Positions 1 to 9,000 of a DNA stretch of 64,000 nucleotides are shown here, in pieces. The position numbers are program-made. Numbering within the stretch: position 1 is the stretch's first letter; each line of letters begins with the position of its first letter. The stretch is taken from the NCBI RefSeq assembly GCF_056712565.1, contig NZ_CM160072.1, one strand, 5' to 3'.

Positions 1-3000
1 TGCTACGCCCGGATGTCTGGTTGATGATTGGTCACTGTGGCGGATTACGTGAAAGCCAGGCCATTGGAGATTATGTCCTTGCACACGCTTATTTACGCGA
101 TGACCACGTTCTTGATGCGGTTCTGCCGCCCGATATTCCTATTCCGAGCATTGCTGAAGTGCAACGTGCGCTTTATGACGCTACCAAGTTAGTCAGCGGC
201 AGGCCTGGTGAGGAAGTCAAACAGCGGCTGCGTACAGGTACTGTGGTAACCACAGATGACAGGAACTGGGAGTTACGTTACTCAGCTTCTGCACTTCGTT
301 TTAACTTAAGCCGGGCCGTAGCAATTGATATGGAAAGTGCAACCATTGCCGCGCAAGGATATCGTTTCCGCGTGCCATACGGGACACTACTGTGTGTTTC
401 AGATAAACCGTTACATGGTGAGATTAAGCTTCCCGGCCAGGCTAACCGTTTTTATGAAGGCGCTATTTCCGAACACCTGCAAATTGGCATTCGGGCGATC
501 GATTTGCTGCGCGCAGAAGGCGACCGACTGCATTCACGTAAATTACGAACCTTTAATGAGCCGCCGTTCCGATAATAAGTTATGAACCTTCTTATCAGAA
601 ATAGATGTGAAGGATTAAGTAAGACATCTGGCAAATAGCCTGCAATAAACGCGGGCTGTTTGCTTCCTTGGGCAGATGCGAGTTTTATTATCGTCTTAAT
701 GATTTCCACATATTAAAAGCAAGTATGCTTTCAAAACACAATTATAAAAAATCCCGCCAACAACATTAGTTTTTATAAAATTAAATATAAGATTATGGCT
801 TTAGAATATTTTTATTTCTAATAGACGAGATTTTTCCTGTTATGATATAATATGCTGAATTAACACATGTTAACGATTTACCAGTAATGTAAATAAATTT
901 TCGAGGAGATCATTCCAGTGGGACGTAAATGGGCCAATATTGTTGCTAAAAAAACGGCTAAAGACGGTGCAACGTCTAAAATTTATGCAAAATTCGGTGT
1001 AGAAATCTATGCTGCTGCCAAACAAGGTGAACCCGATCCAGAATTAAACACATCTTTAAAATTCGTTATTGAACGTGCAAAGCAGGCACAAGTTCCAAAG
1101 CACGTTATTGATAAAGCAATTGATAAAGCCAAAGGCGGTGGAGATGAAACGTTCGTACAGGGACGTTATGAAGGCTTTGGTCCTAATGGCTCAATGATTA
1201 TTGCTGAGACATTGACTTCAAATGTTAACCGTACGATTGCTAACGTTCGCACAATTTTCAATAAAAAAGGCGGCAATATCGGAGCGGCAGGTTCTGTCAG
1301 CTATATGTTTGACAATACGGGTGTGATTGTATTTAAAGGAACAGACCCTGACCATATTTTTGAAATTTTGCTTGAAGCTGAAGTTGATGTTCGTGATGTA
1401 ACTGAAGAAGAAGGTAATATTGTTATTTATACTGAACCTACTGACCTTCATAAAGGAATCGCGGCGCTAAAAGCAGCTGGAATCACTGAGTTCTCAACAA
1501 CAGAATTAGAAATGATTGCTCAATCTGAAGTTGAGCTTTCCCCAGAAGATTTAGAAATCTTTGAAGGGCTTGTTGATGCCCTTGAAGATGACGACGATGT
1601 ACAAAAAGTTTATCATAACGTCGCAAATCTCTAATTATATGTTAAAGAAATCTGTCTTTATGGCAGATTTCTTTAATCTCATATAATCCTTATAAAAATA
1701 TAATGTTTAACTCGTCATATTGCTTATAAAAAATCCCCGTTCCCAGAGAAATAATATTTATTAAAATGGCAGGTCTTCTTTTTCTGATTACCGAAGACAA
1801 AGTGGCAATTACGTATAGTTTCCCGATAAAGACGCGACAGCTACATCCCGCATAAGGCATTTTTCTCTTTATCTTTGTACGGTACTTCATGGAACAGAAT
1901 TTTTGACCTTGTGAATCGTGATGTCTGTTGGGGAGGGGCAATTTGCTCACTGAAGCGTGAGACTCGATTAAGCGCACGAAACACAGAAATCAAAAACCCG
2001 ACCACTTTTTTACAAAGTGACCGGGTAAAAATAATTTTTATTTTTTAACTGTCCTGAGACTCATAGAGATGTCTCAAAACTAAAATTTGGCTCCTCTGAC
2101 TGGACTCGAACCAGTGACATACGGATTAACAGTCCGCCGTTCTACCGACTGAACTACAGAGGAATCGTGTGAACGGGGCGCATATTAATGGCAGTGCATG
2201 GTGATGTCAAAGGGTGAAATGCATTTTTTTGTTTGTTTGCTGACAATTTCAACAAAGTGGTGAGCTTTCAATCTTATTGGGTAATGAACCATCGTGGTGC
2301 ATACCCCCCTTTTATAGGGCAGGTGAATGCGACTGCTGATAAAAAGGGCCAATGACGAATCTATCATAATCTCTTATTTGACAGTTGGTTAGCTTGCGCA
2401 TCAACGCTAAAATAGAACTGGCAAGCATCTTGCATTCTGGTTGTAAGTAATGGCGGCACTTGGGCCGATTCTTAAAAACCGGAGGCAACATGAACTTCAG
2501 ACGCCTGAAATACTTCGTAAAAATTGTAGATATTGGTAGCCTGACCCAGGCTGCTGAAGTATTGCATATTGCACAACCAGCGCTCAGCCAGCAGGTTGCC
2601 ACACTGGAAGGTGAGTTAAATCAACAGCTTTTGATTCGCACAAAACGGGGCGTTACGCCAACAGGCGCCGGAAAAATTCTCTATACCCATGCACGGGCCA
2701 TTTTACGTCAGTGTGAGCAGGCCCAACTGGCGGTGCATAACGTTGGTCAGTCATTATCGGGGCAAGTCTCGATTGGCTTTGCGCCAGGAACCGCTGCGTC
2801 ATCCATCACCATGCCCTTATTACAGGCGGTTCGCGCTGAATTCCCGGAGGTCGTTATCTATCTTCATGAAAATAGTGGTGCAGTGCTTAACGAAAAACTG
2901 ATAAATCACCAACTCGATATGGCGGTGATTTATGAGCATTCCCCTGTGGCTGGGGTATCCAGTCAGGCTTTGCTGAGAGAAGATCTTTTCCTGGTAGGAA

Positions 3001-6000: not shown

Positions 6001-9000
6001 GGTTTCGATGTTGAGCATGTGGGGTTGTCGGGTTGTAGTCGGTTATGTGCTGGGAATCATGCTTGGCTGGGGTGTGGTTGGCGTCTGGATGGGAATGTTT
6101 GCCGACTGGGCTGTGCGGGCCGTGCTGTTTTACTGGCGAATGGTTACTGGACGTTGGCTATGGAAATACCCTCGATCCGAGCCGCAAAAGTGTGAAAAAA
6201 AGCCAGTTGTATCGGAATAAACGACAAAATGCAGATTATTTCAGCAAACGATTTCAAATTTAAAAAACAGGCTTTGACATTGTGGGTGGGCATCGCTAAT
6301 ATTCGCCTCGTTCTCACGATTCCTCTGTAGTTCAGTCGGTAGAACGGCGGACTGTTAATCCGTATGTCACTGGTTCGAGTCCAGTCAGAGGAGCCAATTT
6401 CCTGCTTTCATGCATCCTTGCGAATCCTTATGTTATTTTTATTCAACAGGTTAGCGTGAAAACTCTTCCCGGTGCATTTTGATTTTACCCTCTGCATCGG
6501 GAAAAATTGGTGGTCAAATCTGGGGTCAGGTTAGTTCGATAATGGAGTGACCCCCATATGTCCCTTAACGACGCAAAAATCCGTAGTCTCAAGCCCACTG
6601 ATAAACCCTTTAAAGTCTCCGATTCCCACGGTCTGTATCTGCTGGTCAAACCAGGCGGTTCCCGTCTCTGGTATCTTAAATACCGTATTAATGGCAAAGA
6701 ATCCCGTATTGCACTGGGTGCCTACCCTGCCGTCTCCCTGTCTGACGCCCGCCAGCAGCGCGAAGGCATCCGTAAGATGCTGGCGCTGAACATCAACCCG
6801 GCGCAGCAACGTGCCGCTGAACGCGGCTCGCGCATGCAGGAGAAAATGTTTAAATCCGTGGCACTGGAGTGGCACAGTAGCAAGAAAAAATGGTCGCAGA
6901 ATACCGCAGATCGCGTGCTTGCCCGTCTGAACAGACATGTCTTTCCGACCATCGGGCATCTACCAGTTACCGAGCTTAAATCACGTCATTTCATTGAATT
7001 ACTGAAAGGCATTGAGGAAAAGGGCTTGCTTGAAGTTGCGTCCCGCTCGCGGCAACACCTCAGCAACATTATGCGTTATGCTGTTCATCAGGGGTTAATC
7101 GAAATCAACCCAGCTGCAAATCTTGACGGCGTGACGGCTTCTCCCGCCAGACGACATTATCCCACCCTGCCACTGGAGCGCCTTCCTGAGCTGCTTGAAC
7201 GGATTGACAGTTATCACCAAGGACGGGAACTCACCAGGCTTGCAGTCCTGCTGACGTTGCATGTGTTCATTCGCTCAAGTGAACTGCGCTATGCTCGTTG
7301 GACAGAGATTAACTTCAGAAATCGGATCTGGACGATACCTGCCACACGCGAAGCGATTGCAGGCGTACGTTATTCCAGTCGAGGTGCCAAAATGCGTACA
7401 CCGCATATTGTGCCCCTTTCTGAGCAGGTTATCTCTATTCTGAAAAGGATTAAGGAAATATCTGGCGGGTATGAACTGGTGTTCCCCGGCTATCATGACC
7501 CCTACAAGCCGATGAGTGAAAATACTATCAATAAGGCACTTCGCCAGATGGGATACAACACGAAACAAGATATCTGCGGTCATGGTTTCCGGGCAATGGC
7601 GTGTAGCGCGCTGATGGAATCCGGTTTATGGTCGCAAGATGCAGTGGAGCGTCAGATGAGTCACCAAGAGCGCAACACTGTGCGTCTGGCTTACATTCAT
7701 AAGGCCGAACATATGGAAGCCCGCATGGACATGATGCAGTGGTGGTCGGATTATCTGGATATGTGCAGTGAAATCTGGGTGCCCCCGTACATCTGGAGTC
7801 AGCAAAACATTAATCTCGCAGTAACCTGACTTATGAATAATCTTGTAAAGAACCAGGCCGTATCAGCAAACGCTGATACGGCTTTTCATCCACAGGCCGT
7901 TTTTCATCTTCTAAGTCGTCCAGGACATCATGGTTCTTAATACACATGCGTTCGCATGTGCTTATGTTAAGTAGACTTATTGTCTTACACATTTTATCCG
8001 TATCATTAACCAGAATATGTTCCGGAGCAGCGGGTGATAGTGCCGCCAGTCCACACTCATCGCTGCCCGGAAAAATCATCAGTGGGGAGGCAAACGGTAA
8101 GCACCCCGCTATTCTGCAAGACATTTCTGCAGTTTATTTAACCTCCCCGAAGCATTTTTATAAGGCGAGGCGGTATTAAATTGAATCATACGACCTCGGG
8201 TCCATTTATTATACCAAGGTTTACCGTAAAGCTCATCGTTACTGAATCGTTCAATCAAAGCCACGAGTTGCTGCTTATTTTCCTTTAACCGTGCCAATAA
8301 AACTTCGTACTCTGTAATATCCTCATAGTCACGGTAGAATTTCTGTGCTAAACGCCCCAATTCATTCCATTTAAATCCTTCCTCAGGAAAAATAATAGTT
8401 TTTCCTTTTGCCTCTTGGTCATGCCAGTGTAACACCAGCTCTCCCCAGCCAATCAGATAGGAAACCAGATTCGCTACGCTAATCGTAGTCCCCTTCGCGT
8501 GCCCTTCCAATAGAGGTTCAAAGGCGAGTTGGGGCGTAATAGATTCTAGCTTCTTATTTAATAAAGAAAAATTACTATTAATAGCTTTAATTAACTCTTC
8601 TTTTGATGATGGAACAGCCATATCTATTGCTCCTTGTATAGTTACACAACTATTTCTACCCTACTATTTCGAGTGATTCAATCGTCTGGTTCACATAACC
8701 TACCACCTGTTCAAAATGCTTATCGACAAAAAAATGATCGGCAGCAGGAAATATAATAGTCCGCGTCTTTCGTGTGGTGAATTTTTCCCATGCAAGTAAT
8801 TCATCCTGCATTACCAGATTGTCAGCATCGCCATGAAATAGCACGATCGGACAGGTTAATGTGCGCGCCTTGGCCTGAAATACATACTGCTCATAGAGCC
8901 GATAATCGTTTTTAATGATGGGGGTGAAAATTGTCATTAACTCTTTATTACGAAAGACATCAACCGGAGTTCCGCCCAGCTTGACGATCTCTTCCATAAA

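Follow-up and report, generated by a model that had tools for sequence, protein, structure and literature searches.

The window analyzed here, a stretch of 64,000 nucleotides from contig NZ_CM160072.1 (assembly GCF_056712565.1), contains a nac-cbl-yeeO block next to the pks (colibactin) island, in an order that appears reversed with respect to Escherichia coli K-12. This raises the questions of whether the block is truly inverted, at which tRNA-Asn gene the island resides, and how the arrangement came about. The present analysis shows that the 4.3-kb block, which lies between oppositely oriented, identical tRNA-Asn genes, is flipped relative to K-12, and that this asnW-asnV inversion is real and ordinary, being a published hallmark of pks-carrying B2 strains such as Nissle 1917. 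It has already been described for pks+ strains by Auvray et al. 2021 (PMC8209727), Wami et al. 2021 (PMC8461471), and Russell et al. 2019 (PMC6458436), the last of which cites Ou et al. 2006 for the first report; the review of Desvaux et al. 2020 (PMC7545054) does not mention it. The additions made here to the published work are confined to an explicit dissection of the hybrid flanks and to counts from 5,426 complete genomes.

Gene order and breakpoints of the inverted block

ARAGORN finds three tRNA-Asn(GTT) genes in the window and no others, at 2088-2163 (−), 4497-4572 (−), and 6321-6396 (+), which reproduces the coordinates and the mixed orientation given in the first-pass annotation. All three have the cloverleaf, the GTT anticodon, and the 76-nt length of the asnT/U/V/W family, and their 76 nt are identical to one another and to K-12 asnW, asnU, and asnV.

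In the K-12 MG1655 record the genes are ordered amn(+), yeeN(+), asnW(−), yeeO(−), asnU(+), cbl(−), nac(−), asnV(+), ldtA(−), and cobT(−), in agreement with the order yeeN-asnW-yeeO-asnU-cbl-nac-asnV-erfK given for K-12 in the first-pass annotation. A RefSeq record that is 100% identical to positions 1-7000 of the window reads instead yeeN(+), tRNA(−), nac(+), cbl(+), tRNA(−), yeeO(+), tRNA(+), integrase(+), and clbS. BLASTN against MG1655, the kind of alignment by which the claimed inversion was to be checked, bears the claim out. Positions 1-2187, with amn and yeeN (918-1634, +), are colinear with K-12, as are positions 60778-62458 on the far side of the island, with cobT and ldtA (erfK; 60849-61784, −). 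Positions 2084-6400, in contrast, align in the inverted orientation over 4,317 bp with 97.7% identity. This segment comprises nac (2490-3407, +; gltC in some papers), cbl (3509-4459, +), the asnU-equivalent tRNA at 4497-4572, which is a passive passenger of the block, and yeeO (4733-6220, +), which encodes a MATE FMN/FAD exporter and now points the same way as the island-proximal tRNA and the integrase gene.

The two outer tRNA genes are embedded in an inverted repeat of 120 nt, the left arm of which (2068-2187) is 91% complementary to the right arm (6297-6416) and includes a fully identical core of about 85 bp. Comparison with K-12 places both breakpoints inside this identical tRNA segment. 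Both outer tRNAs are hybrids with respect to the K-12 flanks, the crossover being confined to the tRNA and a few nucleotides. The gene at 2088-2163 combines the asnV-type 5′ flank on its nac side, including a promoter-like TTGACA-17-TAATAT element (2182-2210, −), with the asnW-type 3′ flank on its yeeN side. The gene at 6321-6396 is preceded by the asnW-type 5′ flank, whose promoter-like TTGACA-17-TAATAT element (6274-6302, +) now faces the integrase of the pks island. Because the block contains the promoters of both outer tRNAs, whereas their terminators and 3′ flanks are outside it, the crossover exchanged the 5′ halves of the two genes. The flanks are thus exchanged reciprocally around a reverse-complemented interior, with sequence neither gained nor lost and every gene left intact. 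The earlier proposal that the whole block was inverted between inverted tRNA-Asn copies is supported by the K-12 alignment and by these hybrid flanks.

Chromosomal position of the pks island

The body of the island (6397-60777) extends from clbS to clbA. The tRNA at 6321-6396 constitutes its attachment site attL, and the gene for a P4-type tyrosine integrase (6558-7829, +; WP_000055670.1 in identical records) is located directly 3′ of it. At the far end, the 16-bp direct repeat CCAGTCAGAGGAGCCA (60778-60793, +), which corresponds to the tRNA 3′ end, forms attR and is followed by the K-12 asnV-type 3′ flank with its terminator hairpin, and then by ldtA. With an integrase-bearing pks island at tRNA-Asn, yeeO upstream, ldtA on the far side, 16-bp direct repeats, and the yeeO-proximal ("asnW") tRNA adjoining the integrase in an asn-tRNA block (4,309 bp in the published form) that runs opposite to its orientation in pks-negative E. 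coli, the window represents the known colibactin region of phylogroup B2 E. coli termed configuration 1A by Auvray et al. (PMC8209727) and class Ic by Wami et al. (PMC8461471), the two terms denoting the same arrangement. There is no structural difference between that form and the window, and the window proved identical to Nissle 1917 with all probes applied.

The tRNA at 6321-6396 is the gene named asnW in the literature, where insertion at asnW is described as being accompanied by the inversion (PMC8209727). The first-pass annotation regarded the naming as ambiguous, rightly so: the gene has the asnW 5′ flank and yeeO as its neighbor, yet its place beside ldtA is that of K-12 asnV, and the ambiguity is therefore real. 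The literature name and the asnW 5′ flank of the island-proximal tRNA would also fit a history in which the island entered K-12 asnW, next to yeeN, on an uninverted chromosome, and some other, larger rearrangement produced the present order. This we consider very improbable, as the far island end consists of the direct repeat, the asnV-type 3′ flank, and ldtA, and yeeN directly abuts a tRNA with the asnW 3′ flank, without a direct repeat or an island remnant. Moreover, a probe joining yeeN, the direct repeat, and an island end, which represents pks at asnW in the K-12 orientation, matched 0 of the 5,426 genomes.

Non-inverted pks+ strains point to the same position. UTI89 (configuration 1B) and the ICE- and cargo-bearing strains SCU-101, 8178, and CFE299 (configuration 1C) have the integrase of the window or a near-identical one (WP_000055670.1 in UTI89, 8178, and CFE299; WP_001560542.1 in SCU-101) at the same location beside ldtA. 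They differ from the window in that the block has the K-12 orientation and the tRNA preceding the integrase is the nac-side one (asnV); in the 1C form, additional cargo separates the integrase from clbS. Despite the opposite orientation, the block sequences of the window and UTI89 differ at only 5 of 4,157 alignment columns. Hence, what is called the "asnW" site in typical B2 strains and the "asnV" site in UTI89 and in the ICE-bearing forms is a single chromosomal position, with this flip as the only difference between the two. The value of this result is mainly one of bookkeeping: since the sites coincide, insertion-site typing, screens for islands at tRNA sites, and synteny comparisons should allow for the inversion.

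Distribution among complete genomes

Junction probes were counted over the 5,426 complete E. coli genomes, and the K-12 junction is present in 4,971 of them, and this majority is the basis for polarizing the change from the K-12 form to the inverted one. The inverted left junction yeeN-tRNA-nac occurs in 264 genomes, contiguous yeeO-tRNA-int-clbS in 261, and the pks end followed by the direct repeat and ldtA in 268, while clbS/clbQ are present in 289-296; the totals are aggregates from junction probes rather than per-genome tables, and they show small discrepancies (261, 263, 264, and 268). No clean assembly with the inversion and without pks was found among the 5,426 genomes, about 5,100 of which are pks-negative.

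The probe for an inverted but island-free locus, the chimeric yeeO-tRNA-ldtA junction, matched SE15 alone. At its left junction, SE15 repeats the 3′ end of its own yeeO; the match is 100% over 600 bp, then drops to 88, 80, 78, 75, and 59% and contains indels and noise in homopolymers. We attribute this structure to a low-quality read tail misjoined in the assembly and reject SE15 as a clean inverted empty locus.

Such cases bear on the concern that the arrangement in the window is itself a collapse or misjoin across the three identical tRNA repeats. Older assemblies are indeed anomalous at this locus, SE15 in the manner just described and UM146 by an odd duplicated structure. However, both inverted junctions are found in 261-264 independent complete genomes, at up to 100% identity, the identical core of about 85 bp is shorter than an ordinary read, and published MinION and PacBio assemblies and PCR agree with the arrangement (PMC8209727, PMC6458436). 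The artefact reading is effectively refuted, its residual probability being practically nil.

Origin of the inversion

We consider it highly probable that the known 1A arrangement arose by integration at K-12 asnV followed by one tRNA-tRNA crossover that flipped the block. An integrase-bearing pks element would first have entered the 3′ end of the ldtA-side tRNA-Asn, that is, K-12 asnV, and would then have shed its ICE module. A single reciprocal crossover within the ~85-bp core shared by the inverted asnW and asnV genes would next have flipped the 4.3-kb yeeO-asnU-cbl-nac segment. In the present arrangement, the asnW promoter and its tRNA point into the integrase, downstream of a yeeO gene of the same direction, and the asnV promoter and its tRNA end at the asnW 3′ flank by yeeN. 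This arrangement would subsequently have been passed down to the main pks+ lineages. The order of the steps, with integration at asnV preceding the inversion, we infer from which variants exist rather than from a dated phylogeny.

Chromosomal inversions arise by homologous recombination between inverted copies of rRNA, tRNA, or IS sequences. The present block resembles such inversions in having its breakpoints in identical repeats, in the absence of sequence loss, and in being reversible in principle; it differs from them in its very small size (4.3 kb), its very short repeat (~85 bp identical), and its link to one genomic island lineage. The crossover would most simply be a RecA-dependent homologous exchange between the tRNA copies. 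Set against frequent neutral recombination of this kind, the absence of the inversion from the ~5,100 pks-negative genomes, which have the same repeats, is somewhat surprising.

This absence would be explained if the P4-type integrase of the island catalyzed or stimulated the flip by acting on attL, with its 16-bp core, and the identical inverted core in asnW, in which case the association with pks would be mechanistic and not genealogical alone. The inversion is confined to genomes with this integrase, the 261-264 inverted ones all being pks+, and an exchange between attL and an inverted attB would yield exactly the hybrid tRNAs observed; by sequence, it is inseparable from a RecA-mediated one, because both cross over within the identical tRNA. 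Furthermore, Russell et al. (PMC6458436) detected both orientations by PCR in cultures of pks+ UTI89, independently of the Fim recombinases, although not in pks+ CFT073. However, related integrases occur without inversion at asnV in ~190 genomes (probe ~91% identical) and at asnW in ~100 genomes (~87%). The three 1C strains examined are likewise non-inverted, two of them (8178 and CFE299) with the identical WP_000055670.1 and SCU-101 with its near-identical counterpart. A single event and common descent account for the association equally well, and attL and attB are not a canonical substrate pair of tyrosine integrases. We therefore regard an integrase-driven flip as unlikely. If it did operate, the block would be a reversible, integrase-controlled segment, in which the asnW promoter and yeeO read-through would replace the asnV promoter in driving the integrase, thereby altering island stability. 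It has been proposed in the literature that the inversion may influence the expression of the integrase and the stability of the island.

The UTI89 sub-populations (PMC6458436), the only case in which minority isomers have been reported, also invite the view of the block as a phase-variable switch under active maintenance, with regulatory effects, for example on the expression of the integrase, yeeO, or nac. The orientation in UTI89 and UM146, unlike that in related pks+ strains in spite of the same block lineage (5 of 4,157 columns), suggests reversal, and the flip alters the promoter and the upstream gene that read into the integrase. Like the fimS/FimBE, hin, and ipuS switches, the block is a segment bounded by inverted repeats, with two orientations and an adjacent tyrosine recombinase gene. 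Unlike them, it has no dedicated invertase, no invertase gene other than the island integrase being found in positions 1-8000 of the window, and its flip, unlike that of fimS/FimBE, is independent of the Fim recombinases (Russell et al., PMC6458436). The genes and the tRNA promoters are intact in both orientations, so that an on/off logic is not apparent. A maintained switch is accordingly quite improbable. The orientation is near-fixed in populations, with ~261-264 inverted versus ~10 non-inverted integrase-linked pks+ genomes and 0 inverted pks-negative ones, and as a structural marker the inversion conveniently identifies the main pks+ lineage.

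Orientation of the nac-cbl-yeeO block

Scanned with ARAGORN, the 64-kb window yields three tRNA-Asn(GTT) genes and no further copies, at 2088-2163 (-), 4497-4572 (-) and 6321-6396 (+), all with the same 76-nt sequence, which is also that of asnW, asnU and asnV of K-12. In the annotation of a RefSeq record with 100% identity to window 1-7000, the gene order is amn, yeeN(+), tRNA(-), nac(+), cbl(+), tRNA(-), yeeO(+), tRNA(+), tyrosine integrase(+), clbS, clbQ and clbP. Both the tRNA coordinates and the order read from the sequence in the first-pass annotation are thus correct, and the K-12 order that it gave is borne out by the MG1655 record: amn(+), yeeN(+), asnW(-), yeeO(-), asnU(+), cbl(-), nac(-), asnV(+), ldtA(-), cobT(-).

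The proposal that the block between the outer tRNAs is inverted relative to K-12 is supported by BLASTN alignment to MG1655, in which the inner segment is reversed and both flanks are colinear. Window 1-2187 follows K-12 up to and across asnW; the asnV-to-asnW stretch of K-12 then reappears, reverse-complemented, as window 2084-6400 (97.7% over 4,317 bp), and window 60778-62458 matches the final 16 nt of asnV, followed by ldtA and cobT. The sequence of the block is almost unchanged between the orientations, as it has 5 differences from UTI89 over 4,157 columns, compared with 99-100 from K-12.

The longest yeeO ORF (546 aa) starts with a TTG at 4580, 8 nt past the asnU-equivalent tRNA, and resembles the 547-aa K-12 annotation. 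The RefSeq product in identical B2 records has 495 aa (4733-6220), the annotated start site varying between strains.

It should be mentioned that the inversion is already known, having been published by Auvray et al. 2021 (PMC8209727), Wami et al., and Russell et al. 2019 (PMC6458436). According to Auvray et al., inversion of the 4,309-bp asnW-asnU-asnV region is peculiar to typical pks+ B2 strains (configuration 1A), with UTI89 as the sole non-inverted 1B strain ("asnV"), whose pks sequence clusters with 1A. Russell et al., using paired-end analysis and PCR, found that part of the population in UTI89 cultures carries the asnW/asnV inversion, independently of the Fim recombinases. They also point out, with reference to Ou et al. 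2006, that the orientation in CFT073 is opposite to that of UTI89 and other strains. The initial observation is confirmed, and its interpretation is supported.

The crossover and the island-bearing tRNA

Flank alignment shows that the 2088-2163 tRNA has a 5' flank of the K-12 asnV type, including a TTGACA-17-TAATAT promoter-like site, and a 3' flank of the asnW type. The 6321-6396 tRNA has the 5' flank and promoter of asnW and is followed by island DNA, while the 3' flank of asnV and its terminator hairpin come after the direct repeat that closes the island on its far side. The identical core comprises 85 bp at 100% (BLASTN), within a 120-nt inverted repeat (2068-2187 and 6297-6416, 91% complementary). 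Since the outer tRNAs have exchanged flanks, the crossover is limited to the tRNA and a few identical flanking bases, which places the suggested recombination between inverted tRNA-Asn copies inside this core.

The promoters of both outer tRNAs lie inside the flipped block and the 3' flanks outside. No sequence is lost and nothing is disrupted; the effect is solely to swap the 3' context faced by each promoter/tRNA unit, and the inversion also sets yeeO upstream of the tRNA and the integrase, co-directional with both.

The pks (colibactin) island occupies 6397-60777; at its right end the last 16 bp of the tRNA recur as a direct repeat (CCAGTCAGAGGAGCCA, 60778-60793). The tRNA that bears it counts as asnW on account of its 5' half and of yeeO next to it, and this is also the literature name, but as asnV on account of its chromosomal position adjoining ldtA and of the 3' flank past attR, the repeat at the right end. 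The ambiguity of naming that had been pointed out is therefore justified. The inversion is useful as a structural marker and calls for caution in naming tRNA insertion sites; otherwise it is of low interest.

Distribution among complete E. coli genomes

We searched 5,426 complete E. coli genomes with 1.2-kb junction probes, some of them chimeric, counting a genome when a single place covered at least 80% of the probe. The inverted junction yeeN-tRNA-nac is found in 264 genomes and the K-12 junction yeeN-tRNA-yeeO in 4,971. The clbS/clbQ genes are present in 289-296 genomes, the contiguous yeeO-tRNA-int-clbS-clbQ arrangement (5-kb probe) in 261, and the junction from the pks end through the direct repeat to ldtA in 268. 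In this survey the island lies on the ldtA side in every case, and yeeN-direct repeat-pks end, as expected for pks at asnW without inversion, occurs in 0 of the 5,426 genomes. The inverted block without the island (yeeO-tRNA-ldtA) is seen in SE15 alone. Judged by these counts, the inversion and the typical pks arrangement have essentially the same distribution, and pks-negative genomes lack the inversion. The clbS/clbQ probe also matches two places on plasmids and one chromosome at only ~91% identity (strain SW070917, clbS only); these sequences are related to pks but lie outside its usual chromosomal setting.

The nac-tRNA-int junction, taken over all integrases, is found in 209 genomes. In sixteen of these records, from about ten strains, identity to the pks integrase is at least 99.5%, and the remainder carry other islands with integrase regions ~91% identical. 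Relative to window 6397-7000, about 190 genomes have such a ~91% identical island integrase region at the nac-side tRNA (asnV), and about 100 have a different island, its integrase region ~87% identical, at the yeeO-side tRNA (asnW).

Among pks+ genomes in the K-12 orientation, UTI89 has the nac-side tRNA followed directly by the pks integrase and then clbS. SCU-101, 8178 and CFE299 are also non-inverted, the latter two with the same integrase protein (WP_000055670.1), and their arrangement matches configuration 1C, the ICE-bearing form in the literature. Past the integrase, these three carry genes for an AfsA-like hotdog protein, an ACP, a beta-ketoacyl-ACP synthase, a HAD hydrolase, an MFS transporter, a split transketolase and a LuxR-type regulator (10038-17143 in locus L006, and likewise in L007 and L008). 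This cluster looks like a small-molecule locus of the butyrolactone or autoinducer type and probably belongs to the 11-kb section for which Auvray et al. were unable to predict a role.

Origin of the inversion and two anomalous assemblies

At the level of sequence, the junctions show that the exchange was reciprocal and took place inside the identical core of the tRNAs; the agent, RecA-mediated homologous recombination or the island integrase, can only be inferred. The integrase could have acted on attL, the tRNA 3' end at the left of the island, and an inverted attB in asnW. Such a route would yield identical products, and it would fit the complete absence of the flip from ~5,100 pks-negative genomes and the minority isomers in UTI89. 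However, the block is inverted in none of the ~190 asnV and ~100 asnW genomes with related integrases, nor in the 1C strains that share the pks integrase, and we consider this route improbable. For the same reasons, it is quite likely that homologous recombination, together with common descent from a single ancestral event, produced the present distribution; one such event would suffice to explain the association with pks.

Auvray et al. suggest that the inversion accompanied insertion and may stabilize the island. After the inversion attL and attR are in direct orientation, and excision is therefore formally possible; any stabilizing effect would presumably have to work via integrase expression.

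SE15 (NC_013654.1), the only one of the 5,426 genomes with yeeO-tRNA-ldtA, was rejected as a clean inverted, empty genome. Both junction types are present: beside yeeN-tRNA the 3' end of SE15's yeeO occurs again (L004 2245-3390), in a copy that is 100% identical over 600 bp and then falls to 88, 80, 78, 75 and 59%, with indels and homopolymer noise, and that adjoins nac-upstream sequence degraded to the same degree. We attribute such decay to low-quality read tails joined in finishing. The reference assembly thus looks unreliable at the asn locus, with read tails apparently misjoined, and because the decayed copy bears this signature the true structure is uncertain.

UM146 (NC_017632.1) has the UTI89 block in sequence and the K-12 orientation. 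Three additions precede its pks integrase (L005 7604-8504): a further, inverted copy of the yeeN-side flank (window 2087 to 1633), a piece of the 3' part of yeeO (window 5948-6320) and a fourth tRNA-Asn. The extra segment may be a trace of re-inversion out of the 1A form, since deletion between the two direct tRNAs would yield the UTI89 structure, but an assembly error is just as possible. The extra flank copy ends beside the yeeN stop codon, directly past which the window has a palindromic terminator-like sequence (1633-1676) whose start is the UM146 breakpoint.
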